DNA from: Escherichia phage REP2
DNA length: 64,000 bases
Direction: 5' to 3' (one strand)
Sequence record: OQ174501.1
Below the pieces are notes generated by a model that worked only from the letters and a program-made list of their open reading frames with translations, was not told the DNA's origin and ran no database searches. A program made the translations under genes and the position numbers. The first letter of the stretch is position 1. Every line of letters begins with the position of its first letter. This document shows, piece by piece, positions 2,776-64,000 of the stretch.

Positions 2776-4460
2776 AGAATTTTAAACTAAACCGAGTTAG
2801 GTATCAAAATATAATGTCAGTAGGTGGAAATCCTATTGACATTCAATTAGATAAGGTTCAAAAAACTCTTATTACTGGACGAAATGGCGGTGGTAAGTCT
2901 ACTATGTTAGAAGCCATCACATTTGGGCTTTTTGGCAAGCCATTTCGTGATGTAAAGAAAGGTCAATTAATAAACAGCACAAATAAGAAAGAACTTTTAG
3001 TTGAACTGTGGATGGAATATGATGAGAAAAAGTACTATATCAAAAGAGGACAAAAACCAAACGTTTTCGAAATCACCGTTAACGGTACACGTCTTAATGA
3101 ATCTGCCAGCAGTAAAGATTTCCAAGCAGAATTTGAACAGCTTATCGGAATGTCATATGCCAGTTTCAAGCAGATTGTTGTCCTTGGTACAGCAGGGTAT
3201 ACCCCTTTCATGGGTTTGTCGACCCCTGCGCGAAGAAAGCTTGTGGAAGACCTGCTTGAGGTAGGAACATTAGCTGAAATGGATAAGCTTAATAAAGCAC
3301 TAATACGTGAATTAAATTCGCAGAACCAAGTGCTTGATGTTAAAAAAGATAGTATTATCCAACAAATTAAAATATATAATGATAACGTTGAACGCCAGAA
3401 AAAATTAACGGGTGACAACCTTACACGTCTACAAAATATGTATGATGATTTGGCAAAAGAAGCTAGAACGCTAAAATCGGAAATAGAAGAAGCTAACGAA
3501 AGATTAGTTAATATTGTTTTGGATGAAGACCCGACTGATGCATTTAATAAAATCGGTCAAGAAGCAGTTTTAATTAAATCAAAAATTGACTCGTATAATA
3601 AAGTCATTAATATGTATCACGAAGGTGGATTATGTCCAACCTGTTTGTCACAATTAAGTTCCGGTGATAAAGTTGTTTCTAAAATTAAAGATAAAGTTTC
3701 TGAATGTACGCATTCGTTTGAACAGCTTTCAACACACCGTGATAATTTAAAAGTTCTTGTTGATGAATACCGAGATAATATTAAAACTCAGCAGTCGTTG
3801 GCAAATGATATTCGCAATAAAAAGCAATCTCTAATCACGACGGTAGATAAAGCTAAAAAAGTTAAAGCAGCTATAGAAAAAGCATCTTCTGAGTTTATTG
3901 ACCATGCTGATGAAATAGCACTGCTTCAAGAAGAACTTGATAAAATTGTTAAGACAAAAACTAATTTAGTAATGGAAAAATACCACCGAGGAATTTTGAC
4001 TGATATGCTCAAAGATTCTGGTATTAAAGGTGCTATTATTAAAAAGTACATTCCATTATTTAATAAGCAGATTAACCATTATCTTAAAATAATGGAAGCG
4101 GATTATGTGTTTACATTAGATGAAGAATTTAATGAGACAATTAAATCCCGTGGTCGTGAAGATTTTAGTTATGCTTCATTCAGTCAAGGTGAAAAAGCAC
4201 GAATTGATATTGCTCTTTTATTTACTTGGCGTGATATTGCTGAAAAAGTTTCAGGTGTTAAAATAAGTTGTTTATTTCTTGATGAAGTGTATGACGGTGC
4301 ATTTGATGCTGAAGGCATTAAAAATGTAGCTAAAATTTTAGATGGTTTGAAGGATACCAACTTCTTCATAATTTCGCATAAAGACCATGATCCGCAGGAT
4401 TATGGACAGCATATTAAAATGGAAAAAGTTGGTAGATTTAGTGTTGCCACTATTAATTAA
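2772..4460 (+). CDS. 46: recombination endonuclease subunit gp46 (Rad50/SbcC-like ATPase)
   Basis: 562 aa; Walker A GRNGGGKST, long central coiled-coil, zinc-hook-like CPTC, C-terminal LFLDEV signature region; apparent GTG start. Confidence 0.9.
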   Translation: MKNFKLNRVRYQNIMSVGGNPIDIQLDKVQKTLITGRNGGGKSTMLEAITFGLFGKPFRDVKKGQLINSTNKKELLVELWMEYDEKKYYIKRGQKPNVFEITVNGTRLNESASSKDFQAEFEQLIGMSYASFKQIVVLGTAGYTPFMGLSTPARRKLVEDLLEVGTLAEMDKLNKALIRELNSQNQVLDVKKDSIIQQIKIYNDNVERQKKLTGDNLTRLQNMYDDLAKEARTLKSEIEEANERLVNIVLDEDPTDAFNKIGQEAVLIKSKIDSYNKVINMYHEGGLCPTCLSQLSSGDKVVSKIKDKVSECTHSFEQLSTHRDNLKVLVDEYRDNIKTQQSLANDIRNKKQSLITTVDKAKKVKAAIEKASSEFIDHADEIALLQEELDKIVKTKTNLVMEKYHRGILTDMLKDSGIKGAIIKKYIPLFNKQINHYLKIMEADYVFTLDEEFNETIKSRGREDFSYASFSQGEKARIDIALLFTWRDIAEKVSGVKISCLFLDEVYDGAFDAEGIKNVAKILDGLKDTNFFIISHKDHDPQDYGQHIKMEKVGRFSVATIN

Positions 4461-14783: not shown

Positions 14784-15965
14784 ATGTCTATTGCAGATTT
14801 AAAATCCCGTTTGATTAAAGCTTCCACTTCTAAAATGACTGCTGAACTGACTACATCTAAATTCTTTAATGAAAAGGATGTAATTCGTACAAAAATTCCA
14901 ATGCTTAATATTGCTATTTCTGGTGCAATTGATGGCGGTATGCAGTCTGGTTTAACTATTTTCGCAGGGCCTTCTAAACACTTTAAATCAAATATGTCTT
15001 TGACTATGGTTGCGGCATATTTGAACAAATATCCTGACGCGGTTTGTCTATTCTATGATAGCGAATTTGGTATTACTCCAGCTTATTTGCGATCCATGGG
15101 AGTTGACCCGGAACGTGTAATTCATACGCCAATTCAGTCAGTTGAACAACTGAAAATTGATATGGTGAACCAGCTTGAAGCTATTGAGCGTGGTGAAAAG
15201 GTTATTGTATTCATCGACTCAATCGGTAATATGGCTTCTAAGAAAGAAACGGAAGATGCCTTGAATGAAAAATCTGTGGCAGATATGACTCGTGCTAAAT
15301 CACTGAAGTCATTATTCCGTATTGTTACTCCTTACTTTAGCATTAAAAATATTCCATGTGTTGCGGTTAACCATACAATTGAAACAATTGAAATGTTTAG
15401 TAAAACCGTGATGACAGGTGGTACAGGCGTAATGTATTCGGCTGATACTGTATTCATTATCGGTAAGCGTCAGATTAAAGATGGTTCTGATCTTCAGGGG
15501 TATCAATTTGTTCTAAATGTAGAAAAATCTCGTACCGTTAAAGAAAAAAGTAAATTCTTTATTGATGTTAAATTTGACGGTGGTATCGATCCTTATTCTG
15601 GATTGTTAGATATGGCTCTAGAATTAGGATTTGTAGTAAAACCTAAGAATGGTTGGTATGCTCGTGAATTTCTTGACGAAGAAACCGGCGAGATGATTCG
15701 CGAAGAAAAATCTTGGCGTGCAAAAGATACCAACTGCACTACATTCTGGGGTCCTTTATTTAAGCATCAACCATTCCGAGATGCTATTAAACGCGCTTAT
15801 CAGTTAGGTGCTATTGATAGTAATGAAATTGTTGAAGCTGAAGTTGATGAATTGATTAACTCAAAGGTTGAAAAATTTAAATCTCCAGAAAGTAAAAGTA
15901 AACCAGCAGCTGATTTAGAAACTGACCTCGAGCAGTTAAGTGATATGGAAGAATTTAATGAATAA
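14784..15965 (+). CDS. uvsX: recombinase UvsX (RecA/Rad51 family)
   Basis: 393 aa; Walker A GPSKHFKS, RecA-like core, acidic C-terminus. Confidence 0.9.
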   Translation: MSIADLKSRLIKASTSKMTAELTTSKFFNEKDVIRTKIPMLNIAISGAIDGGMQSGLTIFAGPSKHFKSNMSLTMVAAYLNKYPDAVCLFYDSEFGITPAYLRSMGVDPERVIHTPIQSVEQLKIDMVNQLEAIERGEKVIVFIDSIGNMASKKETEDALNEKSVADMTRAKSLKSLFRIVTPYFSIKNIPCVAVNHTIETIEMFSKTVMTGGTGVMYSADTVFIIGKRQIKDGSDLQGYQFVLNVEKSRTVKEKSKFFIDVKFDGGIDPYSGLLDMALELGFVVKPKNGWYAREFLDEETGEMIREEKSWRAKDTNCTTFWGPLFKHQPFRDAIKRAYQLGAIDSNEIVEAEVDELINSKVEKFKSPESKSKPAADLETDLEQLSDMEEFNE

Positions 15966-16302
15966 AGATGATTTAGATTTAGATCTAGAAATTATCGATG
16001 AATCCCCCTCTTCGGAGGGGGAAGAAGAAAGAAAAGAACGTCTTTTTAATGAATCTCTTAAGATAATTAAATCTGCCATGGAAAATGTTATCCAGGAGAT
16101 TGTCATTAAACTAGAAGATGGTTCTACACACATTGTGTATGTGACAAAATTAGATTGGGTTGATGGAAAGGTTGTAATGGACTTTGCTGTTCTTGACCAA
16201 GAAAGAAAAGCTGAGTTAGCTCCTCATGTAGAAAAATGTATTACAATGCAACTACAAGATGCATTTAATAAAAGGTCAAAGAAAAAATTTAAATTCTTTT
16301 AA
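15958..16302 (+). CDS. 40: gp40 head vertex assembly protein (small early protein between uvsX and 41)
   Basis: 114 aa from the ATG at 15958, overlapping the uvsX stop; T4 synteny. Confidence 0.5.
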   Translation: MNKDDLDLDLEIIDESPSSEGEEERKERLFNESLKIIKSAMENVIQEIVIKLEDGSTHIVYVTKLDWVDGKVVMDFAVLDQERKAELAPHVEKCITMQLQDAFNKRSKKKFKFF

Positions 16303-32224: not shown

Positions 32225-34042
32225 ATGATTAAGAATGAAATTAAAATTCTGAGCGATATTGAACATATCAAAAAGCGTAGCGGCATGTATATTGGCTCTT
32301 CTGCTAATGAAATGCATGAGCGCTTTCTGTTTGGTAAATGGGAAAGTGTTCAGTATGTACCTGGTCTTGTTAAGCTTATTGATGAAATTATCGATAACTC
32401 AGTAGATGAAGGTATTCGTACTAAGTTTAAATTCGCAAATAAAATTAATGTTACTATTAAAAACAATCAAGTAACAGTTGAAGATAACGGTCGCGGTATT
32501 CCACAAGCGATGGTTAAAACACCTACCGGTGAAGAAATTCCTGGTCCTGTTGCTGCATGGACTATTCCAAAAGCAGGTGGTAACTTTGGTGATGATAAAG
32601 AACGCGTCACTGGCGGTATGAATGGTGTTGGTTCTAGTTTGACAAACATTTTTTCTGTGATGTTTGTCGGTGAAACTGGTGATGGTCAAAATAATATTGT
32701 AGTTCGTTGTTCAAATGGCATGGAAAATAAATCATGGGAAACTATTCCTGGAAAATGGAAAGGAACTCGTGTTACTTTCATTCCTGATTTTATGTCATTT
32801 GAAACTAATGAGCTGTCCCAAGTTTATCTTGACATTACACTAGATCGTCTCCAGACACTTGCAGTAGTTTATCCTGATATTCAATTTACCTTTAATGGTA
32901 AAAAGGTTCAGGGCAATTTTAAGAAATATGCACGCCAATATGATGAGCATGCTATTGTTCAAGAACAAGAAAATTGCTCTATTGCGGTTGGTCGTTCACC
33001 GGATGGTTTTCGTCAATTAACTTATGTGAATAACATTCACACTAAGAATGGTGGCCATCACATTGACTGTGTTATGGATGATATTTGTGAAGACCTTATT
33101 CCACAAATCAAACGTAAGTTCAAAATTGATGTGACTAAAGCACGCGTTAAAGAATGTTTGACTATCGTTATGTTTGTTCGTGATATGAAAAACATGCGAT
33201 TTGATTCTCAAACTAAAGAGCGTTTGACTTCTCCATTTGGTGAAATCCGTAGTCATATTCAGCTTGATGCTAAAAAGATTTCACGTGCTATTTTGAATAA
33301 TGAAGCAATTCTGATGCCAATTATTGAAGCTGCACTAGCTCGTAAATTGGCGGCGGAAAAGGCAGCAGAAACTAAAGCAGCTAAAAAGGCTTCTAAAGCT
33401 AAGGTTCATAAACATATTAAAGCGAATCTTTGTGGTAAAGATGCTGACACTACTCTTTTCTTGACTGAGGGTGATTCGGCTATCGGATATCTTATTGATG
33501 TTCGTGATAAAGAACTTCACGGTGGTTATCCATTGCGCGGTAAAGTTCTCAACAGTTGGGGTATGTCTTATGCAGATATGCTTAAAAACAAAGAACTATT
33601 TGATATTTGCGCAATCACTGGATTAGTTCTCGGTGAAAAAGCTGAAAACTTGAATTATCATAATATTGCTATTATGACTGATGCTGACCATGATGGTCTA
33701 GGAAGCATTTATCCTTCTCTGCTCGGATTTTTTAGTAATTGGCCAGAATTGTTTGAGCAAGGACGAATTCGCTTTGTCAAAACTCCTGTAATCATCGCTC
33801 AGGTCGGTAAAAAACAAGAATGGTTTTATACAGTCGCTGAATATGAGAGTGCCAAAGATGCTCTACCTAAACATAGCATCCGTTATATTAAAGGACTTGG
33901 CTCTTTGGAAAAATCTGAATATCGTGAGATGATTCAAAATCCAGTATATGATGTTGTTAAACTTCCTGAGAACTGGAAAGAGCTTTTTGAAATGCTCATG
34001 GGAGATAATGCTGACCTTCGTAAAGAATGGATGAGCCAGTAG
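32225..34042 (+). CDS. 39: DNA topoisomerase II large subunit, uninterrupted gene 39 plus 60 (GyrB-like ATPase and Toprim)
   Basis: 605 aa; GHKL ATPase region, Toprim TEGDSA and DADHDG; the residues around the T4 gene 60 bypass site (DADHDG-LGSIYPSL) are encoded contiguously. Confidence 0.85.
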   Translation: MIKNEIKILSDIEHIKKRSGMYIGSSANEMHERFLFGKWESVQYVPGLVKLIDEIIDNSVDEGIRTKFKFANKINVTIKNNQVTVEDNGRGIPQAMVKTPTGEEIPGPVAAWTIPKAGGNFGDDKERVTGGMNGVGSSLTNIFSVMFVGETGDGQNNIVVRCSNGMENKSWETIPGKWKGTRVTFIPDFMSFETNELSQVYLDITLDRLQTLAVVYPDIQFTFNGKKVQGNFKKYARQYDEHAIVQEQENCSIAVGRSPDGFRQLTYVNNIHTKNGGHHIDCVMDDICEDLIPQIKRKFKIDVTKARVKECLTIVMFVRDMKNMRFDSQTKERLTSPFGEIRSHIQLDAKKISRAILNNEAILMPIIEAALARKLAAEKAAETKAAKKASKAKVHKHIKANLCGKDADTTLFLTEGDSAIGYLIDVRDKELHGGYPLRGKVLNSWGMSYADMLKNKELFDICAITGLVLGEKAENLNYHNIAIMTDADHDGLGSIYPSLLGFFSNWPELFEQGRIRFVKTPVIIAQVGKKQEWFYTVAEYESAKDALPKHSIRYIKGLGSLEKSEYREMIQNPVYDVVKLPENWKELFEMLMGDNADLRKEWMSQ

Positions 34043-38951: not shown

Positions 38952-39046
38952 AAATTTTTAATTCTGTACTTATTGCTTGTGCGTGGTGGGTTGCACAAGT
39001 TTCGGCAGTAGTGATTGGTATTCACATTTATTACGAATATTTTTAA
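38948..39046 (+). CDS. tiny hydrophobic peptide (32 aa)
   Basis: ATGA-coupled; MKIFNSVLIACAWWVAQVSAVVIGIHIYYEYF. Confidence 0.3.
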   Translation: MKIFNSVLIACAWWVAQVSAVVIGIHIYYEYF

Positions 39047-39053
39047 AAAAGTT

Positions 39054-39083
39054 GTTTACAAGACTGTTCTTCCGTGGTACTAT
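39054..39083 (+). promoter_or_regulatory. T4-type early promoter
   Basis: gtttacaagactgttcttccgtggtactat, a 30-bp near-identical copy of 11392-11421. Confidence 0.5.
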
Positions 39084-39111
39084 TACCCTATCAACTACGG
39101 AGGAACAGAAA

Positions 39112-39225
39112 ATGAAAAAGATTGTTAAAGCTATATGGAATGTAGTTATAATACTAATAGTTTTGAGTATATTCCCAATCGTTTTAATGATTGATGTATT
39201 AAACGCTTACTTTGGATTTATGTGA
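39112..39225 (+). CDS. tiny hydrophobic membrane peptide (37 aa)
   Basis: GGAGG SD; MKKIVKAIWNVVIILIVLSIFPIVLMIDVLNAYFGFM. Confidence 0.4.
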   Translation: MKKIVKAIWNVVIILIVLSIFPIVLMIDVLNAYFGFM

Positions 39226-39232
39226 GGAAAAT

Positions 39233-39430
39233 ATGAAGCGTAAAAGCACTGCGTTTACATTTATTGAATGGTTTTTCGATAATATTTTTCCGGCTTTATT
39301 CATTTTCATGCTGATTTTTGCCTTAGGTTCAGTTGTAGTTGGAATCTATTTGATGGCGGTAGTTGGAATGGACATTCATCAAAATGGTTTAAAATCCGTG
39401 GTTGAAACAATTTGGAATGGTGTAAAATGA
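39233..39430 (+). CDS. small membrane protein (65 aa)
   Basis: GAGGA SD; one long hydrophobic segment. Confidence 0.45.
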   Translation: MKRKSTAFTFIEWFFDNIFPALFIFMLIFALGSVVVGIYLMAVVGMDIHQNGLKSVVETIWNGVK

Positions 39431-39537
39431 TGAATTTGCTGAGCGGTTGGTTTTATATTCTTATGTTTTACATTGGCGCAAATTTCCCATATTGGATGGG
39501 ATGGTCAACAACTGCGTTTGGATTTTATACTCCTTGA
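39427..39537 (+). CDS. tiny hydrophobic peptide (36 aa)
   Basis: ATGA-coupled; MMNLLSGWFYILMFYIGANFPYWMGWSTTAFGFYTP. Confidence 0.3.
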   Translation: MMNLLSGWFYILMFYIGANFPYWMGWSTTAFGFYTP

Positions 39538-39545
39538 GGTGAATT

Positions 39546-39761
39546 ATGAAAATCTTTAAAGATGTAAAAGTTGGTGAAATTTTTTGTTTAGATAATGGTG
39601 ATCAGTTAATTCGTATTTCACCTCTTAAGAGCACTAGCGAGAAACCGACAGTTAATGCTACTTTAGCAAATAACAGTAATGAACGTTTCTGTATTGAAAA
39701 TGATACTGAAACTTATACTGTAGAAGAGTTTTGGGAATTGAGCGTCGACTGCGACGATTAA
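39546..39761 (+). CDS. hypothetical small protein
   Basis: 71 aa ORF with GAGG SD. Confidence 0.45.
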
Positions 39762-39819
39762 TTTAATGGCCGCGTATTCATGCGGCCTTGGAGTAGAAAA
39801 TAATTTAGAGGAAATTAAT

Positions 39820-40278
39820 ATGAAATACATGACTGTTACTGATCTGAACAACGCAGGCGCTACTGTTATTGGTACAATCAAGGGTGGTGAGTGGTTTTTA
39901 GGAACTCCGCATAAAGATATTTTATCTAAACCTGGATTTTACTTTTTAGTAAGTAAATTAGATGGTCGTCCATTTAGTAATCCATGTGTGTCTGCACGAT
40001 TTTATGTAGGTAATCAGCGTTCTAAGCAAGGATTCAGTACAGTTCTAAGTCATATTCGTCAACGTCGGTCTCAGCTTGCACGTACTATTGCAAATAACAA
40101 TATGGTATACACAGTATTTTATCTGCCTGCTTCTAAGATGAAACCTCTGACGACAGGATTTGGTAAAGGTCAGTTAGCTTTGGCGTTTACCCGTAATCAT
40201 CATTCCGAGTATCAAACACTTGAAGAAATGAACCGTATGTTGGCTGATAACTTTAAATTCGTTTTGCAGGCATATTAA
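39820..40278 (+). CDS. ndd: Ndd-like protein (nucleoid disruption; assigned by size and position immediately upstream of stp)
   Basis: 152 aa from the ATG at 39820 with GAGGA SD. Confidence 0.4.
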
Positions 40279-40358
40279 TGAGTAATTTCCACAACGAACA
40301 CGTGATGCAGTTCTATCGTAATAATCTTAAAACTAAAGGCGTCTTCGGACGCCAGTGA
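40278..40358 (+). CDS. stp: Stp peptide (26 aa activator/modulator of the host PrrC anticodon nuclease system)
   Basis: 26-codon [32 protein letters not shown] overlapping the upstream stop; matches the size and position of T4 stp. Confidence 0.65.
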
Positions 40359-40365
40359 GGAAAAT

Positions 40366-40524
40366 ATGAATATTGCAAAATTATTAGGAGTTATTTCATT
40401 TATTTGTTGGATAGTAGCATGTGTTTTAACTATCTGTATTGATGCCAGCAGTGTGTTTTCGCAAGCTTTAGCTCAGGGTATGTGTGCATATTTAACATTT
40501 GTGTTGTTATCTACTAATGATTAA
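40366..40524 (+). CDS. ac: Ac-like small membrane protein (acridine sensitivity locus position)
   Basis: 52 aa hydrophobic ORF between stp and gene 52. Confidence 0.4.
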   Translation: MNIAKLLGVISFICWIVACVLTICIDASSVFSQALAQGMCAYLTFVLLSTND

Positions 40525-40657
40525 GAAAATCTTGGGCTATTCATTAGCCCTTGCTATTTTATTGATAGCATTATATTACGGAATAATGTTCGGATTAATT
40601 CAAGTCGTGCTTTTCATTTCTGATGTTATTATGGCACTACATTCACTAGTATGGTAA
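40517..40657 (+). CDS. tiny hydrophobic membrane peptide (46 aa)
   Basis: ATG overlaps the previous stop; MIKKILGYSLALAILLIALYYGIMFGLIQVVLFISDVIMALHSLVW. Confidence 0.35.
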   Translation: MIKKILGYSLALAILLIALYYGIMFGLIQVVLFISDVIMALHSLVW

Positions 40658-40661
40658 ATTT

Positions 40662-41990
40662 ATGCAACTGAATAATCGTGATTTAAAAAGTATCATTGAT
40701 AATGAAGCATTGGCTTATGCTATGTACACGGTTGAAAATCGTGCTATCCCAAATATGATTGATGGATTTAAGCCAGTTCAACGATTTGTTATTGCTCGAG
40801 CTCTTGATTTGGCACGAGGAAATAAAGATAAGTTTCACAAACTCGCTTCTATTGCAGGTGGTGTAGCAGACCTTGGATATCATCATGGTGAAAACTCTGC
40901 ACAAGACGCAGGTGCTTTGATGGCTAATACTTGGAATAATAACTTTCCTCTGTTAGATGGTCAAGGAAACTTTGGTTCTCGTACCGTTCAAAAAGCAGCG
41001 GCAAGTCGTTATATTTTTGCTCGTGTAAGTAAAAATTTCTATAGCGTATATAAAGATACTGAATATGCTCCGGTACATCAAGATAAAGAACACATTCCGC
41101 CTGCTTTCTATTTGCCTATTATTCCTACTGTTCTTCTTAATGGTGTTTCCGGTATTGCAACTGGTTATGCAACTTATATTCTTCCTCATAGTGTTTCTTC
41201 TGTCAAGAAAGCTGTATTGCAAGCTCTTCAAGGAAAGAAAGTAACTAAACCGAAGGTAGAATTTCCAGAATTTCGCGGTGAAGTCGTTGAAATTGACGGT
41301 CAATATGAAATTCGTGGAACGTACAAGTTTACTTCACGAACTCAAATGCATATCACTGAGATTCCGTATAAGTATGATCGTGAAACTTACGTGAGCAAAA
41401 TTTTAGACCCGCTTGAAGATAAAGGCTTTATTACGTGGGATGATGCTTGCGGTGAGCATGGGTTTGGCTTTAAAGTTAAATTCCGTAAAGAATACTCTTT
41501 GAGCGATAACGAAGAAGAACGCCATGCAAAAATTATGAAAGACTTCGGGTTGATTGAGCGTCGTTCCCAGAATATTACCGTCATTAATGAGAAAGGAAAG
41601 CTGCAAGTTTACGATAATGTAGTTGATTTAATCAAAGACTTCGTTGAAGTTCGTAAAACTTATGTCCAAAAACGAATTGATAACAAAATCAAAGAAACTG
41701 AATCAGCATTTCGTTTAGCCTTTGCCAAGGCGCATTTCATTAAGAAAGTAATTTCAGGTGAAATTGTTGTGCAGGGTAAAACTCGCAAAGAACTGACCGA
41801 AGAACTTTCTAAAATTGATATGTATTCTTCTTATGTTGATAAACTAGTCGGAATGAATATTTTTCATATGACTTCCGACGAAGCAAAGAAACTTGCTGAA
41901 GAAGCTAAAGCTAAGAAAGAAGAAAACGAATATTGGAAAACTACTGATGTAGTTACCGAATACACTAAAGATTTAGAGGAAATCAAATGA
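40662..41990 (+). CDS. 52: DNA topoisomerase II medium subunit gp52 (GyrA-like)
   Basis: 442 aa; GyrA-type breakage-reunion domain. Confidence 0.9.
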   Translation: MQLNNRDLKSIIDNEALAYAMYTVENRAIPNMIDGFKPVQRFVIARALDLARGNKDKFHKLASIAGGVADLGYHHGENSAQDAGALMANTWNNNFPLLDGQGNFGSRTVQKAAASRYIFARVSKNFYSVYKDTEYAPVHQDKEHIPPAFYLPIIPTVLLNGVSGIATGYATYILPHSVSSVKKAVLQALQGKKVTKPKVEFPEFRGEVVEIDGQYEIRGTYKFTSRTQMHITEIPYKYDRETYVSKILDPLEDKGFITWDDACGEHGFGFKVKFRKEYSLSDNEEERHAKIMKDFGLIERRSQNITVINEKGKLQVYDNVVDLIKDFVEVRKTYVQKRIDNKIKETESAFRLAFAKAHFIKKVISGEIVVQGKTRKELTEELSKIDMYSSYVDKLVGMNIFHMTSDEAKKLAEEAKAKKEENEYWKTTDVVTEYTKDLEEIK

Positions 41991-42136
41991 GTCCATTCAT
42001 AGGTATTACAAGCGCTGCATTAGTATCTGGTGGCATTTTACTGGCGGGTTTAGGTGTTGTTCCTGCCGTAGCAGGAGGTCTTCTTGCGTTCGGAATTCAA
42101 CGTGTTATCATGATAGTTATCACAGTCATGCAGTAA
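41987..42136 (+). CDS. tiny hydrophobic membrane peptide (49 aa)
   Basis: ATGA-coupled to the gene 52 stop; glycine-zipper-like GGILLAGLGVVPAVAGGLLAFG. Confidence 0.35.
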   Translation: MSPFIGITSAALVSGGILLAGLGVVPAVAGGLLAFGIQRVIMIVITVMQ

Positions 42137-42140
42137 TTTT

Positions 42141-42167
42141 AGGGAGAGCCTCGGCTCTCCCTTTTTT
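42141..42167 (+). terminator. rho-independent terminator (GGGAGAGCC...GGCUCUCCC plus U6)
   Basis: agggagagcctcggctctccctttttt. Confidence 0.75.
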
Positions 42168-42191
42168 ATTTTAAAATTTTTTCACAAAACG

Positions 42192-42221
42192 GTTTACAAC
42201 CAAAGCATACTGTGGTACTAT
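42192..42221 (+). promoter_or_regulatory. T4-type early promoter (cassette copy)
   Basis: gtttac, 18-bp spacer, tactat; leader ctatcaaataaatgaactgaaac repeated at 42567-42590. Confidence 0.5.
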
Positions 42222-42270
42222 ACAACTATCAAATAAATGAACTGAAACAAACAACCCGGAGATACAAAAA

Positions 42271-42498
42271 ATGAAATTTAAAATCGAAAACGAAATCGTT
42301 AAAGCTAAAAATGCTCTGACTGCTAACAAACTGGTTGTAGATGGTATTGAATATGATATCTGTGGAGTTCGTGAAGAAAAACCTGGTGTTCTGACTTTCT
42401 TCACAATGATTTTTAAATTTAAAGGTGACACAGAATTCAAACAGTTTGATTTTGCCCATGAAGACGAAATCGAAGTTCGTAATCTGAACATTAAGTAA
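42271..42498 (+). CDS. hypothetical small protein (motA.1-like position)
   Basis: 75 aa ORF. Confidence 0.45.
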   Translation: MKFKIENEIVKAKNALTANKLVVDGIEYDICGVREEKPGVLTFFTMIFKFKGDTEFKQFDFAHEDEIEVRNLNIK

Positions 42499-42537
42499 GT
42501 ACTTTATTAGAGCTCTTGAAAAAGAGTGCAAAAAAGT

Positions 42538-42566
42538 GTTTACTTCTGCTTTAAACATGATACTAT
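42538..42566 (+). promoter_or_regulatory. T4-type early promoter for motA
   Basis: gtttac, 17-bp spacer, tactat. Confidence 0.5.
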
Positions 42567-42603
42567 AGACCTATCAAATAAATGAACTGAAACGGAGATT
42601 AAA

Positions 42604-43239
42604 ATGTCTAAAGTAACTTACATCATCAAAGCTTCTAACGATGTTCTGAATGAAAAAACTGCTGCGATTTTAATTACCATTGCTAAGAAAGATTTCATTA
42701 CAGCCGCAGAAGTTCGTGAGGTGCATCCAGATTTAGGTAATGCAGTAGTTAATAGTAATATTGGGGTATTGATTAAAAAAGGCCTGGTGGAGAAATCTGG
42801 TGATGGATTAATCATTACTGGTGAAGCTCAGGATATTATTTCAAATGCAGCAACTTTATACGCACAGGAAAACGCTCCGGAACTGCTGAAAAAACGAGCA
42901 ACTCGTAAAGCTCGCGAAATTACTTCTGATATGGAAGAAGATAAAGACTTCATGTTAAAACTTTTAGATGAAAATGGATTTGTTCTTAAAAAGGTTGAAA
43001 CTTACCGCAGTAACTATCTCGCTATTTTAGAAAAACGCACTCACGGAATTCGTAATTTTGAAATTAACAACAATGGAAATATGCGAATTTTTGGATACAA
43101 AATGATGGAACATCATATTCAGAAATTTACTGATATCGGAATGTCATGTAAAATCGCTAAAAACGGTAATGTGTATCTTGACATTAAACGCTCGGTAGAA
43201 AACATTGAAGCTGTAATCACTGTAGCATCTGAACTGTGA
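42604..43239 (+). CDS. motA: middle transcription activator MotA
   Basis: 211 aa; size and position match T4 motA. Confidence 0.8.
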   Translation: MSKVTYIIKASNDVLNEKTAAILITIAKKDFITAAEVREVHPDLGNAVVNSNIGVLIKKGLVEKSGDGLIITGEAQDIISNAATLYAQENAPELLKKRATRKAREITSDMEEDKDFMLKLLDENGFVLKKVETYRSNYLAILEKRTHGIRNFEINNNGNMRIFGYKMMEHHIQKFTDIGMSCKIAKNGNVYLDIKRSVENIEAVITVASEL

Positions 43240-43249
43240 GGAATAAATA

Positions 43250-43579
43250 ATGAACAAGTTAGAAATTGTCAATGAACTTCGTCGTTGTGCAGAACCCACT
43301 CAAGAGGGGTGGGACATCTGGTACCATGGAGCTTATCTTGGAACTATCGTAAAGATTAAGACTGGTAAATACATGATTATTCGTGAAAGTAAAGATGCTC
43401 CAGTAGGTATTCGCAATAATTTTATGGCAGCGATAAGTTCATTTACGGATGCAGCTTACGAAATTTACCTTGCTGATTATAAAGAATTCCAGGAATCTCA
43501 ACCAGTTATTCGTTCAATTGGTGTTAACAAAGCTCAACAGAAAACTTTGTGGCAGCGTATTAAAGGATGGTTTAAATGA
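43250..43579 (+). CDS. hypothetical protein
   Basis: 109 aa ORF. Confidence 0.45.
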
Positions 43580-54600: not shown

Positions 54601-55500
54601 TTTACTATCCCCGTCAAACAATCTCCACAATTTCTCATTATCATCAAACATCAAGAAACCATCAATAGATGTACGACCTTCAATGGAATGAGTTCCAACT
54701 TCTTGTACAGAAGTAGTTTCATCGTATGTAGTAACGATAGTATGATATAACGGATTTAATTTATCTAAATCAACGAAATTAATGATATCTCCATGATTGG
54801 CAAATCTTGGAAGTTTAACATTAATCGGTGCGGCAGAAGTAAATCTACGTACGATAAAATCATTAGATTGTGCTTGATATGCAGTCGATGGAGTAACAAT
54901 TGCAGCTTCTCTGCTATAATCAGCAATATACATTTGCCACAAACGGTTATTAAAAATGAATACCATCTGTGACTTTGGATGAGTCATTAAAACTGAACGT
55001 ACTTGTTCACCTCTAAAATTGACAATACTCTGATTTGAAGAATTTATTTTAACCTGATTTATGCCAGGTTTTCCACCGATATCTTGAATTATTACGGTTT
55101 CTCCATCAAGCGGAGAAGGTGGTAAAGTAAACTCAATGTCATTGCCAACTGATGTATCTACTGAAATTGCTTCTCCAGATTTTAATTGATATGGTCCAGA
55201 TGATACAGTTGTATATACAGCATCAGTACGTAATGCTTTCCAACGAATTCTATTAAAATTTCCAGCAGGTTTTGGAATATTATCCGTTGCTGCCCAAAAA
55301 CGATTATTATAAATGATTACAAAATCTTTTAAATATCCACGAGTTGGATCATATTGCTGAACTGTGTTTTCTTGAATTAAGTAATCAACGTTAACACCGT
55401 CAGTTCCTACGGTACGATCAGCTAAAGCTACGTTGATTATTTTATCGCCACCTGCGTCCAGACCATCTTCTGCTCTGAACTTTCTTTTAATCTCGGCCAT
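51631..55500 (-). CDS. 34: long tail fibre proximal subunit gp34
   Basis: 1289 aa fibrous protein with internal tandem repeats. Confidence 0.85.
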   Translation of the reverse strand: MAEIKRKFRAEDGLDAGGDKIINVALADRTVGTDGVNVDYLIQENTVQQYDPTRGYLKDFVIIYNNRFWAATDNIPKPAGNFNRIRWKALRTDAVYTTVSSGPYQLKSGEAISVDTSVGNDIEFTLPPSPLDGETVIIQDIGGKPGINQVKINSSNQSIVNFRGEQVRSVLMTHPKSQMVFIFNNRLWQMYIADYSREAAIVTPSTAYQAQSNDFIVRRFTSAAPINVKLPRFANHGDIINFVDLDKLNPLYHTIVTTYDETTSVQEVGTHSIEGRTSIDGFLMFDDNEKLWRLFDGDSKARLRIITTNSNIRPNEEVMVFGANNGTTQTIELQLPTDISIGDTVKISMNYMRKGQTVKIKAAGEDKIASSVQLLQFPKRSEYPPEAEWVTVQELVFNGETNYVPVLQLAYIEDSDGKYWVVQQNVPTVERVDSLNNSTRARLGVIALATQAQANADLENSPQKELAITPETLANRTATETRRGIARIATTAQVNQNTTFSFADDLIITPKKLNERTATETRRGVAEIATQQETNTGTDDTTIITPKKLQARQGSESLSGIVTFVSTAGATPASSRELNGTNVYNKNTNNLVVSPKALDQYKATPTQQGAVILAVESEVIAGQSQEGWANAVVTPETLHKKTSTDARIGLIEIATQSEVNTGTDYTRAVTPKTLNDRRATESLSGIAEIATQVEFDAGVDDTRISTPLKIKTRFNSTDRTSVVALSGLVESGTLWDHYTLNILEANETQRGTLRVATQVEAAAGTLDNVLITPKKLLGTKSTEAQEGVIKVATRSETVAGTSANTAVSPKNLKWIVQSEPTWAATTAIRGFVKTSSGSITFVGNDTVGSTQPLESYEKNGYAVSPYELNRVLANYLPLKAKAVDSNLLDGLDSLQFIRRDIAQTVNGSLTLTQQTNLSAPLVSSSTATFGGSVSANSTLTISNTGTATRLIFEKGPQTGTNPAQTMTVRVWGNQFSGESDTTRSTVFEVSDETSSHFYSQRNKAGNITFNINGTVTPINVNASGTLNANGVATFGNSVTATGEIISRSANAFRAISGNYGFIVRNDGSVTNFMLTASGDQTGGFNGLRPLAINNASGQVTIGESLIIAKGATISSGGLTVNSRIRSQGTKTSDLYTRAPTSDTVGFWSIDINDSATYNQFPGYFKMVEKTNEVTGLPYLERGEEVKSPGTLTQFGNTLDSLYQDWITYPTTPEARTTRWTRTWQKTKNSWSSFVQVFDGGNPPQPSDIGAIPSDNGIIGNLTIRDFLRIGNVRIIPDPVNKTVKFEWIE
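53056..54189 (-). repeat. intragenic tandem repeats of about 30-40 aa in gp34 (ITPKKL...TETRRG...IATQ units)
   Basis: at least seven degenerate copies between about aa 438 and 815. Confidence 0.55.
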
Positions 55501-55534
55501 TCTCCCGGGCTCCTATTGTGTTTTCAATAATAAG

Positions 55535-55542
55535 TATTTATA
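55535..55542 (-). promoter_or_regulatory. late promoter (TATAAATA on minus strand) for gene 34
   Basis: plus-strand tatttata, 35-42 nt upstream of the gene 34 ATG. Confidence 0.55.
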
Positions 55543-55545
55543 CCT

Positions 55546-55575
55546 GTTTACTTTAAGATTTAGATAGTATATAAT
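55546..55575 (+). promoter_or_regulatory. T4-type early promoter for rnh
   Basis: gtttac, 18-bp spacer, tataat. Confidence 0.5.
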
Positions 55576-55604
55576 AGAAATCTCACTAATTGAACGAGGT
55601 TCAT

Positions 55605-56522
55605 ATGGATTTAGAAATGATGCTGGATGAAGATTACAAAGAAGGAATTTGCTTTATTGACTTTAGTCAAATTGCTCTTTCAACTGCTCTGGTAAACTTC
55701 CCAGATAAAGAAAAAATTAATTTATCGATGGTTCGTCATTTGATATTGAACTCAATTAAGTTTAATGTCAAAAAAGCAAAAACGCTTGGATACACTAAAA
55801 TTGTACTGTGTATTGATAACGCGAAATCTGGATATTGGCGTCGTGATTTCGCTTATTATTATAAGAAAAACCGTGGAAAAGCACGAGAAGAATCTACTTG
55901 GGACTGGGAAGGTTATTTTGAATCCAGTCATAAAGTTATAGATGAATTGAAAGCTTATATGCCATACATTGTTATGGATATTGATAAGTATGAAGCAGAT
56001 GACCACATTGCTGTTCTTGTTAAAAAGTTCTCTTTAGAAGGACACAAGATTTTAATCATTTCATCGGATGGTGACTTTACTCAACTTCACAAATATCCAA
56101 ATGTTAAGCAATGGTCACCGATGCACAAGAAATGGGTTAAAATTAAAAGCGGTTCTGCTGAAATTGACTGTATGACTAAAATCCTTAAGGGCGACAAAAA
56201 GGATAACGTTGCTTCGGTTAAAGTACGATCTGATTTTTGGTTTACCAGAGTTGAAGGTGAACGAACTCCTTCAATGAAAACTTCAATAGTTGAAGCTATT
56301 GCTAATGACCGTGAGCAAGCTAAGGTGCTTCTCTCAGAATCTGAGTATAATCGTTATAAAGAAAATTTAGTTCTAATTGATTTTGATTATATTCCTGATA
56401 ATATTGCTTCAAACATTGTGAATTACTATAATTCATATAAATTACCACCGCGTGGCAAAATTTATTCATATTTTGTAAAAGCGGGTCTTTCTAAATTAAC
56501 TAATAGCATTAATGAATTTTGA
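55605..56522 (+). CDS. rnh: RNase H (5'-3' exonuclease, FEN family)
   Basis: 305 aa from the ATG at 55605; FEN-type acidic clusters (CIDNAK, DDHIAV, SSDGD). Confidence 0.9.
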   Translation: MDLEMMLDEDYKEGICFIDFSQIALSTALVNFPDKEKINLSMVRHLILNSIKFNVKKAKTLGYTKIVLCIDNAKSGYWRRDFAYYYKKNRGKAREESTWDWEGYFESSHKVIDELKAYMPYIVMDIDKYEADDHIAVLVKKFSLEGHKILIISSDGDFTQLHKYPNVKQWSPMHKKWVKIKSGSAEIDCMTKILKGDKKDNVASVKVRSDFWFTRVEGERTPSMKTSIVEAIANDREQAKVLLSESEYNRYKENLVLIDFDYIPDNIASNIVNYYNSYKLPPRGKIYSYFVKAGLSKLTNSINEF

Positions 56523-56530
56523 GGTGAATA

Positions 56531-56800
56531 ATGGCTAAAAAAGAAATGGTTGAATTTGATGAAGCTATCCATGGCGAAGACTTGGCTAAATTTATTAAAG
56601 AAGCATCTGATCATAAACTGAAAATTTCCGGTTATAATGAACTGATTAAAGATATTCGAATTCGTGCCAAAGATGAACTTGGCGTTGATGGTAAGATGTT
56701 TAATCGTCTATTAGCTTTGTATCATAAAGATAACCGTGATGTGTTTGAAGCTGAAACTGAAGAGGTAGTTGAACTTTATGACACAGTTTTCTCTAAATGA
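56531..56800 (+). CDS. dsbA: DsbA (double-stranded DNA binding protein)
   Basis: 89 aa; position between rnh and gene 33. Confidence 0.6.
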   Translation: MAKKEMVEFDEAIHGEDLAKFIKEASDHKLKISGYNELIKDIRIRAKDELGVDGKMFNRLLALYHKDNRDVFEAETEEVVELYDTVFSK

Positions 56801-57116
56801 TATTCGTCCGGTCGATGAGACCGGTCTTTCAGAAAAAGAACTTTCAATTAAGAAAGAAAAGGATGAAATTGCAAAGCTTCTTGACCGTCAAGAAAACGGA
56901 TTTATTATTGAAAAAATGGTAGAAGAGTTTGGAATGAGTTATCTTGAAGCTACGACAGCATTCTTGGAAGAAAACTCTATTCCTGAAACTCAATTTGCTA
57001 AATTTATTCCTTCGGGGATAATTGAAAAAATCCAGTCAGAAGCTATTGACGAAAATCTTTTACGTCCTTCTGTTGTTCGTTGTGAAAAAACTAATACATT
57101 AGATTTTCTACTATGA
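56778..57116 (+). CDS. 33: late transcription co-activator gp33
   Basis: 112 aa from the ATG at 56778; position upstream of gene 59. Confidence 0.7.
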   Translation: MTQFSLNDIRPVDETGLSEKELSIKKEKDEIAKLLDRQENGFIIEKMVEEFGMSYLEATTAFLEENSIPETQFAKFIPSGIIEKIQSEAIDENLLRPSVVRCEKTNTLDFLL

Positions 57117-57766
57117 TTAAACTCCGCATGCCTGCTGGTGGTGAAAGATATATTGATGGTAAATCAGTTTATAAATTATACTTAATGATAAAACAACATA
57201 TGAATGGAAAGTATGATGTAATTAAGTATAATTGGTGCATGCGGGTGTCTGATGCCGCTTATCAAAAGCGAAGGGATAAGTATTTTTTCCAGAAGTTATC
57301 AGAAAAATATAAATTAAAGGAACTTGCTTTAATCTTTATAAGCAATCTGGTTGCTAACCAAGATGCTTGGATTGGTGACATCTCTGACGCTGATGCACTT
57401 GTGTTTTATCGTGAATATATCGGACGCTTAAAGCAAATTAAATTTAAGTTTGAAGAAGATATTCGCAACATTTATTATTTTAGTAAAAAAGTTGAAGTTT
57501 CTGCTTTTAAAGAAATCTTTGAGTATAATCCAAAAGTTCAGTCGAGTTATATTTTTAAACTACTTCAATCGAATATAATTTCGTTTGAGACGTTTATCTT
57601 GCTTGATTCGTTTTTAAATATAATCGATAAACATGATGAACAGACTGATAATTTAGTTTGGAACAATTATTCTATAAAGTTAAAAGCTTATAGAAAAATT
57701 TTAAATATTGATTCACAGAAAGCTAAAAATGTTTTCATTGAAACTGTGAAATCTTGCAAGTATTAA
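57113..57766 (+). CDS. 59: helicase loader gp59
   Basis: 217 aa; immediately upstream of gene 32. Confidence 0.85.
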   Translation: MIKLRMPAGGERYIDGKSVYKLYLMIKQHMNGKYDVIKYNWCMRVSDAAYQKRRDKYFFQKLSEKYKLKELALIFISNLVANQDAWIGDISDADALVFYREYIGRLKQIKFKFEEDIRNIYYFSKKVEVSAFKEIFEYNPKVQSSYIFKLLQSNIISFETFILLDSFLNIIDKHDEQTDNLVWNNYSIKLKAYRKILNIDSQKAKNVFIETVKSCKY

Positions 57767-57791
57767 TTGCTTATTATAAATAGATTATAAT
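57765..57791 (+). promoter_or_regulatory. middle-mode promoter-like element for gene 32 (MotA-box-like TTGCTTA plus TATAAT)
   Basis: ttgctta at 57767-57773 and tataat at 57786-57791. Confidence 0.35.
57775..57782 (+). promoter_or_regulatory. late promoter (TATAAATA) upstream of gene 32
   Basis: exact TATAAATA. Confidence 0.5.
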
Positions 57792-57799
57792 TATCTCAC

Positions 57800-57865
57800 T
57801 GACCAGCTATGAGGTCATACATCGTCATAGCACCAACTGTTAATTAAATTAAAAAGGAAATAAAA
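57800..57865 (+). promoter_or_regulatory. gene 32 autoregulatory translational operator: H-type RNA pseudoknot followed by unstructured AU-rich leader
   Basis: stem1 TGACC/GGTCA (57800-04 / 57813-17) interleaved with stem2 GCTATG/CATAGC (57806-11 / 57826-31), then ttaattaaattaaaaaggaaataaaa before the ATG. Confidence 0.7.
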
Positions 57866-58774
57866 ATGTTTAAACGTAAATCTACTGCTGAACTCGCTGC
57901 ACAAATGGCTAAACTGGCTGGAAATAAAGGTGGTTTTTCTTCTGAAGATAAAGGCGAGTGGAAACTGAAACTCGATAATGCGGGTAACGGTCAAGCAGTA
58001 ATTCGTTTTCTTCCGTCTAAAAATGATGAACAAGCACCATTCGCAATTCTTGTAAATCACGGTTTCAAGAAAAACGGTAAATGGTATATCGAAAATTGCT
58101 CATCTACCCACGGTGATTACGATTCTTGCCCAGTATGTCAGTACATCAGTAAAAATGATCTGTACAACACTGACAATAAAGAGTACAGTCTTGTTAAACG
58201 TAAAACTTCTTACTGGGCTAACATTCTTGTTGTAAAAGACCCAGCTGCTCCAGAAAACGAAGGTAAAGTATTTAAATATCGTTTCGGTAAGAAAATCTGG
58301 GATAAAATCAATGCAATGATTGCAGTTGATGTTGAAATGGGTGAAACTCCGGTTGATGTAACTTGCCCGTGGGAAGGTGCTAACTTTGTACTGAAAGTTA
58401 AACAAGTTTCTGGTTTTAGTAACTACGACGAATCTAAATTCCTGAATCAATCTGCGATTCCAAACATTGACGATGAATCTTTCCAGAAAGAACTGTTCGA
58501 ACAAATGGTTGACCTTTCTGAAATGACTTCTAAAGATAAATTCAAATCATTTGAAGAACTGAGCACTAAATTCAGTCAAGTTATGGGAACTGCTGCAATG
58601 GGTGGTGCCGCTGCAACTGCCGCTAAGAAAGCTGATAAAGTTGCTGATGATTTGGATGCATTCAATGTTGATGACTTCAATACAAAAACTGAAGATGATT
58701 TTATGAGCTCAAGCTCTGGCAGTTCATCTAGTGCTGATGACACAGACCTGGATGACCTTTTGAATGACCTTTAA
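57866..58774 (+). CDS. 32: single-stranded DNA binding protein gp32
   Basis: 302 aa; basic N-terminus, zinc-binding core, acidic Ser/Asp-rich C-terminus. Confidence 0.9.
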
Positions 58775-62695: not shown

Positions 62696-62975
62696 ATACA
62701 AATCCGACTTTGATGTTAATATTCACCGCGGTACATTTTGGGGAAATTACGTCGGTAAAGATGCTGGCAGCCGAGAGGCTGCCATTGAATTATTCAAAAA
62801 AGATTTTATACGTCGAATTAAATCCGGAGAAATAACTAAAGCACATTTAGAGCCTTTACGTGGAATGAGGCTAGGATGCACATGTAAACCAAAGCCGTGT
62901 CATGGTGATATAATAGCTCATATAGTTAACCGATTGTTTAAAGACGATTTTCAAGTTGAGGACTTATGCAATTAA
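62649..62975 (+). CDS. hypothetical protein
   Basis: 108 aa ORF ending at the nrdA start. Confidence 0.4.
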
Positions 62976-64000
62976 TTAATGTTATCAAAAGTAGTGGTGT
63001 TTCTCAGAGCTTTGACCCGCAAAAAATTATTAAAGTTTTATCTTGGGCAGCTGAAGGAACATCTGTAGATCCTTATGAATTATATGAAAATATTAAATCA
63101 TATCTCCGTGATGGAATGACCACTGATGACATTCAGACTATTGTCATTAAGGCTGCTGCGAATTCTATTTCAGTTGAAGAGCCTGATTATCAATACGTAG
63201 CTGCACGCTGTTTAATGTTTGCTCTTCGTAAGCATGTTTACGGGCAATATGAACCACGTTCATTTATTGACCATATTTCTTACTGTGTAAATGAAGGTAA
63301 ATATGACCCCGAATTATTGTCAAAATATTCAGCAGAAGAAATTACATTTTTAGAATCAAAAATTAAGCACGAACGGGATATGGAATTTACTTATTCCGGG
63401 GCGATGCAATTAAAAGAAAAATATCTAGTTAAAGATAAAACCACTGGTCAAATTTATGAAACTCCACAGTTTGCATTTATGACTATTGGAATGGCATTGC
63501 ATCAAGATGAACCTGTTGATAGATTAAAACATGTTATTCGTTTTTATGAAGCAGTATCTACTCGACAGATTTCACTGCCAACTCCTATTATGGCTGGTTG
63601 CCGTACTCCGACTCGACAGTTCAGTTCATGCGTTGTTATTGAGGCAGGAGATTCATTGAAGTCTATCAATAAGGCTTCCGCTTCGATTGTTGAATATATC
63701 TCTAAACGCGCTGGAATTGGTATTAACGTTGGTATGATTCGTGCTGAAGGTTCTAAGATTGGCATGGGTGAAGTACGCCATACTGGTGTTATTCCTTTTT
63801 GGAAACATTTTCAGACTGCAGTTAAATCATGTTCACAGGGTGGAATTCGTGGCGGCGCTGCTACTGCTTATTATCCTATTTGGCATTTGGAAGTTGAAAA
63901 TCTTCTTGTTTTGAAAAATAACAAAGGCGTAGAAGAAAACCGCATTCGTCATATGGATTATGGTGTTCAACTGAATGATTTGATGATGGAACGTTTTGGA
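62966..64000 (+). CDS. nrdA: ribonucleotide reductase large subunit NrdA, 5' part (continues beyond window)
   Basis: ATG at 62966, frame open to the window end (345 codons); N-terminal ATP-cone and class I RNR core; downstream of frd-td as in T4. Confidence 0.85.
   Translation, partial: MQLINVIKSSGVSQSFDPQKIIKVLSWAAEGTSVDPYELYENIKSYLRDGMTTDDIQTIVIKAAANSISVEEPDYQYVAARCLMFALRKHVYGQYEPRSFIDHISYCVNEGKYDPELLSKYSAEEITFLESKIKHERDMEFTYSGAMQLKEKYLVKDKTTGQIYETPQFAFMTIGMALHQDEPVDRLKHVIRFYEAVSTRQISLPTPIMAGCRTPTRQFSSCVVIEAGDSLKSINKASASIVEYISKRAGIGINVGMIRAEGSKIGMGEVRHTGVIPFWKHFQTAVKSCSQGGIRGGAATAYYPIWHLEVENLLVLKNNKGVEENRIRHMDYGVQLNDLMMERFG

Follow-up and report, generated by a model that had tools for sequence, protein, structure and literature searches.

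Short open reading frames (ORFs) are packed around the gene for the medium subunit of topoisomerase II, gene 52, in Escherichia phage REP2, which raises the questions of which genes they are, whether the RNA that joins them carries signals of its own, and whether the locus bears on host defence. The window analysed here is a 64,000-nucleotide stretch of sequence record OQ174501.1, one strand, read 5' to 3'. A first-pass annotation made from the letters of this stretch had described a 26-codon ORF at the stp position, an ac-like membrane protein, two further micro-ORFs on either side of gene 52 and a hairpin within stp, and on reading the sequence and its ORF list we found every one of these features where it had placed them. 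We conclude, with a probability of about 95%, that the region is the ndd-stp-ac-52.1-52-motA.1 early gene block of a T4-type phage (genus Tequatrovirus) and that each ORF is orthologous to an annotated T4 gene.

Identity of the gene block and of Stp and Ac

A megablast search with positions 39700-42600 matched 759 phage records, 487 of which had at least 80% of the query covered. The best match was Escherichia phage REP3 (Tequatrovirus), with 100% identity over all 2901 nucleotides (nt). The annotated gene order of T4 (NC_000866), namely ndd, stp, ac, 52.1, 52, motA.1 and motA, is the same as that of the window, and alignment of the two gives 97% nucleotide identity across stp-ac-52.1. The small ORFs match curated families with E values of 2e-21 to 2e-30, and no evidence contradicted any of the gene identities. 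The features of the block are as follows, with protein lengths in amino acids (aa).

39820..40278, + strand: ndd, nucleoid disruption protein of 152 aa, at the head of the tightly packed block (Pfam PF06591, E=6.9e-94; REP3 and T4 annotation)
40278-40358, + strand: stp, 26-aa Stp peptide (T4 Stp identity 26/26; Pfam PF08133; PHROG 6763)
40338-40353, + strand: C(UUCG)G tetraloop hairpin GGCGUC-UUCG-GACGCC, inside stp codons 21-26
40357..40368, + strand: ac ribosome-binding site, comprising GAGG (40357-40360), a 5-nt spacer and ATG, within the invariant UGAGGAAAAUAUG
40366-40524, + strand: ac, 52-aa two-helix membrane protein, acridine sensitivity (PHROG 2501, E=3.7e-25; comparison with T4 Ac)
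40517-40657, + strand: 52.1, 46-aa hydrophobic protein (Pfam DUF7396; PHROG 3595; T4 gp52.1 identity 43/46)
40662-41990, + strand: gene 52, topoisomerase II medium subunit (GyrA-like), 442 aa (Pfam PF00521, DNA_topoisoIV, E=9.5e-77; annotation)
41987-42136, + strand: motA.1, 49-aa Gly/Ala-rich hydrophobic peptide (PHROG 3487, E=2e-30; T4 MotA.1 identity 47/49)
42141..42172, + strand: intrinsic terminator at the end of the block, with a CUCG loop on a 9-bp G+C-rich stem and a U-run after it (terminator scan)

All the features named are already known, annotated T4 features in a sequenced phage. What is new here is the placement and conservation of the stp hairpin, the spacing of gp52.1 and the selection acting on it, and a variable slot after gene 52. 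Translation of the block would be tightly coupled, running from a TAATG overlap through the hairpin and Shine-Dalgarno (SD) sequence to the ATGATTAA overlap, a 4-nt gap and finally an ATGA overlap, and its transcription would stop at the strong terminator at 42141. This terminator is conserved in T4 with a change in the loop, and its counterpart in G4500 (MK327945) is annotated as a terminator (-17.7). A scan of positions 39000-43500 against Rfam gave no family that reached its gathering score, and sub-threshold matches occurred only elsewhere in the stretch (24.4 versus 41 bits and 21.6 versus 111 bits).

Alignment with T4 Stp had been named beforehand as the comparison that could overturn the stp assignment. 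It revealed no divergence: the 26-codon ORF is T4 Stp itself, identical at all 26 residues, and the assignment stands. The peptide scores 75.3 bits against PF08133 (anticodon nuclease activator; cut-off 25, E=2e-21), residues 1-26 aligning to profile positions 1-26, and its ATG shares one base with the ndd stop codon (TAATG). According to the review of Uzan and Miller (PMC3014915), Stp is necessary and sufficient to activate PrrC, a latent anticodon nuclease specific for tRNA-Lys. Its target is the PrrC-associated type Ic restriction enzyme EcoprrI; Stp inhibits restriction by this enzyme and by EcoR124I. Suppressor mutations in Stp are concentrated between residues 4 and 14, and its first 18 residues, which hardly vary, make up the functional part; the last eight codons can be deleted with only a moderate lowering of activity (PMC3014915). 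The N-terminal 18 residues encoded here are those of T4 Stp.

The first-pass annotation had Stp either triggering or counteracting PrrC. The triggering is borne out by the literature and the counteracting is not, since the phage's answer to tRNA cleavage is Pnk plus RNA ligase 1 (PMC3014915). Its view that the locus is relevant to defence holds in the classical sense, in that Stp activates PrrC by inhibiting type Ic restriction (EcoprrI, EcoR124I) (PMC3014915). From its 100% identity to the published peptide we infer that the Stp of the window would likewise inhibit type Ic restriction and activate latent PrrC in prr+ cells. Stp would bind the host type Ic restriction complex and block DNA restriction, as shown elsewhere for the identical peptide; in prr+ hosts this block would unmask PrrC, leading to cleavage of tRNA-Lys 5' of the wobble base, and the cut tRNA would then be healed and sealed by phage Pnk and RNA ligase 1. 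Pnk and Rnl1 are encoded by REP3 outside the window. We looked for pseT/pnk inside the window and found it absent; in REP3 it lies ~6.7 kb past the window end. The Stp/PrrC pair is the textbook example of a host abortive-infection nuclease set off by a phage anti-restriction peptide; with the T4 peptide carried unchanged here, the locus has little weight as a discovery.

Stp-like sequences were found in 817 phage records, siphoviruses included. The homologues in Rtp (Rtpvirus; piece positions 1-775), K1ind2 (Kagunavirus; piece positions 701-775) and other T1-like phages have N-terminal 18 residues identical or nearly identical to those of T4 and end in ...GVFGK-stop. Over the first 18 stp codons, comparison with siphovirus K1ind2 gave 0 nonsynonymous and 9 synonymous differences, which points to purifying selection. 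The stp homologue of Rtp is situated ~450 nt downstream of a polynucleotide kinase gene, an arrangement that echoes the T4 Stp/Pnk logic. The REP3 record has no stp annotation, and most records in the tblastn listing of Stp show only ndd beneath the match; hence stp is routinely missed by gene callers. The missing stp is an annotation gap and not a biological novelty, and closing it in REP3 and in most deposited T4-like genomes is one part of the annotation value of this work, the other being a widespread mislabelling of MotA.1.

The 52-aa ac-like membrane protein is indeed Ac, being T4 Ac with one additional Thr and a member of PHROG 2501. It has two hydrophobic segments, a Pfam search with it returned no family, and ac was found in 492 phage records. 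A recent preprint (bioRxiv 10.1101/2025.06.30.662393) reports that E. coli expressing ac is sensitised to acriflavine and that T4 without ac is resistant, and proposes that Ac interferes with AcrAB-TolC efflux. The variant with the extra Thr, which is that of the window, is common and is functional in PP01, with acriflavine susceptibility unchanged (bioRxiv 10.1101/2025.06.30.662393). A 2026 PNAS paper repeats the assumption about efflux. Ac, a two-helix membrane peptide, would make infected cells accumulate acridines; the idea that it acts on AcrAB-TolC is not novel, as it is already in the 2025 preprint. Natural truncations leave 23 codons of ac in G4500 (piece positions 889-960) and 33 codons in an IMG/VR contig, and in a record of a T2 laboratory strain (PV958097) the 11th codon of ac is a stop (TCA to TAA, at ~829-861 of the analysed piece), all of which fits ac being dispensable and easily lost.

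The hairpin at the stp/ac boundary

The GGCGUC-UUCG-GACGCC hairpin that had been noticed within stp was confirmed at 40338-40353 and is present in both the minimum free energy and the centroid folds of its 131-nt context. In isolation its folding free energy (dG) is -11.5 kcal/mol. It combines a UUCG loop, a C-G closing pair and a Watson-Crick stem on the transcribed strand, sits in the C-terminal Stp codons that are functionally dispensable, and ends 3 nt before the SD sequence of ac, GAGG (40357-40360). Four variants were found among the Straboviridae.

GGCGUC-UUCG-GACGCC, Stp ending ...GVFGRQ-stop: T4 type (identical in T4)
GGCGUC-UUCG-GACGCU, Stp ending ...GVFGR-stop: RB68, a Dhakavirus and two IMG/VR contigs
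GGCGUC-UUUG-GACGCC, Stp ending ...GVFGRP-stop: VR7 (Gaprivervirus)
GGUGUC-UUCG-GACGCC, Stp ending ...GVFGRP-stop: two further contigs

In all four the hairpin is kept, with wobble-compatible changes only. RNAalifold retained all six stem pairs, and each pair is intact in all six aligned sequences. The additional residues specified by the 3' arm vary by lineage (RQ, RP or R-stop), with pairing kept. Furthermore, the 13 nt that follow the hairpin (UGAGGAAAAUAUG, containing the stop, SD sequence and start; alignment columns 34-46) are invariant across the lineages, and the gene that comes after them varies: this 'ac slot' is filled either by Ac or by unrelated-looking 49-55-aa membrane proteins with two segments.

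The hairpin is one of a class within the window. Nine UUCG hairpins with stems of 5 bp or more are found on the + strand (at 529, 6558, 8503, 16003, 21548, 32155, 37436, 37672 and 40338), whereas 200 dinucleotide shuffles averaged 0.33 and never gave more than 4, an enrichment of ~27-fold. All nine have a G+C-rich stem and a C-G closing pair and lie on the early-transcript strand, and seven are found in short intergenic gaps, just after or overlapping a stop codon. When all 256 tetraloops are ranked by how often they occur in window hairpins whose stems reach 5 bp or more, UUCG and its complement CGAA come first. UUCG tetraloops were first found in T4 mRNA (PMC4371310). A second case within coding sequence near a cistron boundary is the hairpin at 16003-16022, with an 8-bp stem (TCCCCCTC-TTCG-GAGGGGGA); it lies in the 5' part of a 114-aa ORF (15958-16302; head vertex assembly chaperone by annotation), ~40 nt beyond the end of the upstream recombinase gene.

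We infer for the stp hairpin a role as a boundary structure: a very stable RNA element at the stp/ac junction would shield the upstream message from 3' exonucleases and/or leave the ac ribosome-binding site unpaired. On a reading that goes further, the hairpin and the UGAGGAAAAUAUG junction may be a selected cis-element through which the dispensable last stp codons would govern mRNA stability and translation for whichever small membrane protein fills the 'ac slot'. Several points weigh against so functional a view of the block. Two stem pairs vary on one side only (G-C to G-U and C-G to U-G) with 0 double compensatory changes, and in the absence of two-sided compensation the conservation of the hairpin rests on wobble-compatible changes and low synonymous divergence. 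The stp of T2 and TOPO13, both Tequatrovirus, forms no hairpin (dG -3, z ~0; C-termini NFGILGFKK and NFGILGSKNS), and since it is lacking in T2-type stp of the same genus the hairpin is not essential. The block of AcrAB-TolC efflux by Ac is the proposal of a preprint.

Two other explanations of the hairpin were considered. It may be a chance by-product of the Gly-Val-Phe-Gly-Arg codons with no role at the RNA level, and the pattern of one-sided G-C to G-U changes in place of two-sided covariation agrees with this, as does the different Stp C-terminus that accompanies loss of the hairpin in T2 and TOPO13. However, siphovirus stp encodes the same KGVFG (as KGVFGK-stop) in codons that form no hairpin (dG -1.3 to -1.9), so the Stp peptide does not dictate the structure; the residues of the 3' arm differ between lineages with pairing kept; and in the stem codons 0-1 third positions change from lineage to lineage, compared with a synonymous divergence (pS) of 0.5-0.7 in the upstream stp codons. 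Together with the ~27-fold enrichment of UUCG hairpins on the + strand, these observations make the by-product explanation rather unlikely. Somewhat less probable again is that the hairpin acts as an intrinsic terminator or attenuator between stp and ac, which is how the automated annotation of G4500 has it (MK327945, 'putative transcriptional terminator, -10.30'). The stem is stable and G+C-rich, and a pattern scan calls the hairpin terminator-like, on the minus strand only, where there is a T-rich tail. The sequence after the hairpin on the sense strand is AGUGAGGAAAAUAUG, with no U-tract, and no strong sigma-70-type promoter separates the hairpin from the genes downstream, which are the essential gene 52 and three others; an intrinsic terminator is unlikely on both counts. 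The only promoter-like feature between the hairpin and gene 52 is a MotA-box-like match at 40608, and the UUCG loop is on the + strand only, as in the other eight G+C-rich hairpins. A boundary structure remains our preferred reading of the hairpin.

Two further elements lie close by. The MotA-box-like middle-promoter pattern at 40608-40632 (TGCTTTTCA ... TATTAT) is inside 52.1, ~30 nt before the gene 52 ATG, and is a pattern match of a kind that occurs 32 times in the window against 14.5 expected. A second hairpin, GGGCUA-UUCAU-UAGCCC, is located at 40534-40550 in the N-terminal codons of 52.1 with a T-rich stretch after it, and is labelled 'putative terminator -10.1' in G4500.

Small membrane peptides on either side of gene 52

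The 46-aa hydrophobic ORF upstream of gene 52 is gp52.1 (43/46 identical to the T4 protein), which scores 78.3 bits against DUF7396 (cut-off 27). Its ATG (40517) overlaps the ac stop by 8 nt (ATGATTAA), and it ends 4 nt before gene 52. Homologues of 44-46 aa are found 4-6 nt upstream of gene 52 in Tequatrovirus, Gaprivervirus, Dhakavirus, Mosigvirus, Jiaodavirus, Karamvirus and Enterobacter phage MY742, with a C-terminal motif VLFISDVI..L.W, and no homologue was present in the sampled Acinetobacter, Shewanella, Aeromonas, Krischvirus and KVP40 phages. 52.1 was found in 886 phage records. Compared with other genera, gp52.1 has a ratio of nonsynonymous to synonymous divergence (pN/pS) of ~0.15 at pS 0.4-0.55, indicating purifying selection.

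On the other side, the motA.1 ATG (41987) overlaps the TGA of gene 52 (ending at 41990) as ATGA. The first-pass annotation had called the product a glycine-zipper peptide; its coupling to gene 52 is as described and it is Gly/Ala-rich (8 G, 6 A), and the zipper label fits only loosely. Scans of MotA.1 for strict GxxxG and for the canonical [GAS]xxxGxxx[GST] glycine zipper found neither, small-xxx-small motifs occur in relaxed runs only, and a Pfam search gave no family at E<=1 and hence no Gly-zipper family, so that the label is descriptive at best. The canonical zipper pattern is present in gp52.1 instead (ALYYGIMFG). All 476 phage records in which motA.1 was found show at least 80% identity, from which MotA.1 appears to be essentially confined to Tequatrovirus. 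Many deposited genomes name it 'transcriptional regulator', apparently from the gene name, a label for which the 49-aa hydrophobic sequence offers no support. Our literature search on motA.1 yielded one incidental mention and no functional work, and likewise no functional work on gp52.1.

The position after the gene 52 stop is occupied by different peptides, ATGA-coupled and hydrophobic in all four cases: Tequatrovirus has MotA.1, MY742 a divergent 49-aa homologue, VR7-type phages an unrelated 32-aa peptide and Klebsiella phage KP182 a 23-aa peptide. The last is an unannotated ORF (MIEFYLIIGSVIAVLGLILLLLS; piece positions 3332-3403). In Mosigvirus and Karamvirus no coupled peptide follows gene 52. 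The Ndd homologue of KP182 (piece positions 1176-1631) carries the annotation 'naphthalene 1,2-dioxygenase', apparently a mislabel.

Are these peptides genes at all, and if so do they have to do with the topoisomerase? ORFs of 20-50 codons are plentiful in all six frames (5.5 kb holds 73 that are 20 aa or longer), and in AT-rich DNA both 52.1 and motA.1 could be non-coding chance ORFs. The curated matches (DUF7396, PHROG 3595 and PHROG 3487), the hundreds of records for each gene, the low pN/pS of gp52.1 and the conserved start/stop coupling to neighbouring genes stand against this, and such conservation effectively refutes the chance explanation, to which we attach hardly any credence. The further micro-ORFs of the first-pass annotation are therefore real, and they are not new, being the T4 genes 52.1 and motA.1 already annotated in NC_000866. 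Their products would be expressed-type small membrane proteins that bracket the topoisomerase medium subunit. It is tempting to see in gp52.1 and the peptide coupled to the gene 52 stop membrane partners that tether or regulate this subunit. The constant 4-6 nt spacing of gp52.1 before gene 52 in the sampled Tevenvirinae genera and its purifying selection would agree with such a partnership, as would the coupling of unrelated hydrophobic micro-ORFs in VR7-type phages (32 aa) and KP182 (23 aa) and of a MotA.1-like one in MY742. However, small membrane ORFs abound in T4-type early regions (for example ndd.2 to ndd.6), which makes the base rate of adjacency high; Mosigvirus and Karamvirus do without the coupled downstream peptide; and the Acinetobacter, Shewanella, Aeromonas and KVP40 phages do without both. 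We regard the partnership as quite improbable. A functional link between gp52.1 and the topoisomerase is conceivable from the gene arrangement, and we rate it low because small membrane ORFs are so abundant in these early regions.

The two readings that reach past textbook knowledge, with the hairpin and UGAGGAAAAUAUG junction as a selected cis-element and with gp52.1 and the gene 52-coupled peptides as membrane partners of the topoisomerase, seem doubtful. The comparisons provide two modest leads, one being the conserved hairpin/SD junction and the other the linkage of gp52.1 to gene 52 along with the variable coupled peptides.

Neighbouring genes and comparison with known systems

Between motA.1 and motA there is a 75-aa ORF (42271-42498; PHROG 10955) to which T4 has no counterpart and for which a Pfam search gave no family. 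Two copies of a direct repeat of 36 nt, 92% identical, flank it at 42213-42248 and 42558-42593 (region 42193-42603), and each copy spans the end of an early-promoter-like element (GTTTAC...TACTATA) and its leader. On this arrangement the ORF looks like a promoter-flanked gene cassette that may have been inserted via recombination between promoter copies.

The large subunit of topoisomerase II is encoded in the window by one unsplit 605-aa ORF (32225-34042). In T4 this subunit is split into gene 39 and gene 60. With the large subunit in one ORF, the gene 60 arrangement known for translational bypassing would be lacking here. The REP3 annotation gives the large subunit of ribonucleotide reductase two ORFs, of 330 and 477 aa, with a homing endonuclease gene between them (REP3 record 54721-57889), which suggests that nrdA is split in REP3. 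The window end (62966-64000) falls in the last piece of that part of the REP3 record.

Compared protein by protein, the block departs little from that of T4. T4 Stp (NP_049878) has the same 26 residues, the same slot between ndd and ac, the same TAATG overlap with ndd and the same embedded hairpin, and its gene differs from stp of the window by two synonymous nucleotide changes only. T4 Ac (NP_049877, 51 aa) shares the two hydrophobic segments and the overlap with 52.1 and is identical but for the Thr, the codon for which is inserted in frame three codons before the stop in the window. T4 gp52.1 (NP_049876) is also of 46 aa and also lies 4 nt upstream of gene 52; its differences are three conservative substitutions in the membrane segment (I/A, I/V and I/V). 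T4 MotA.1 (NP_049874) is of 49 aa, overlaps the gene 52 stop as ATGA and is followed by the same terminator, with two substitutions (G/S and I/T).

Tuerk et al. reportedly noticed C(UUCG)G hairpins in T4 mRNA in 1988. The copy in stp resembles those of T4 mRNA in its C-G-closed UUCG loop, its G+C-rich stem, its location on the early-transcript strand and its place at a cistron boundary, and differs in lying within coding sequence, in the last codons of stp, instead of in a gap, with no U-run after it.

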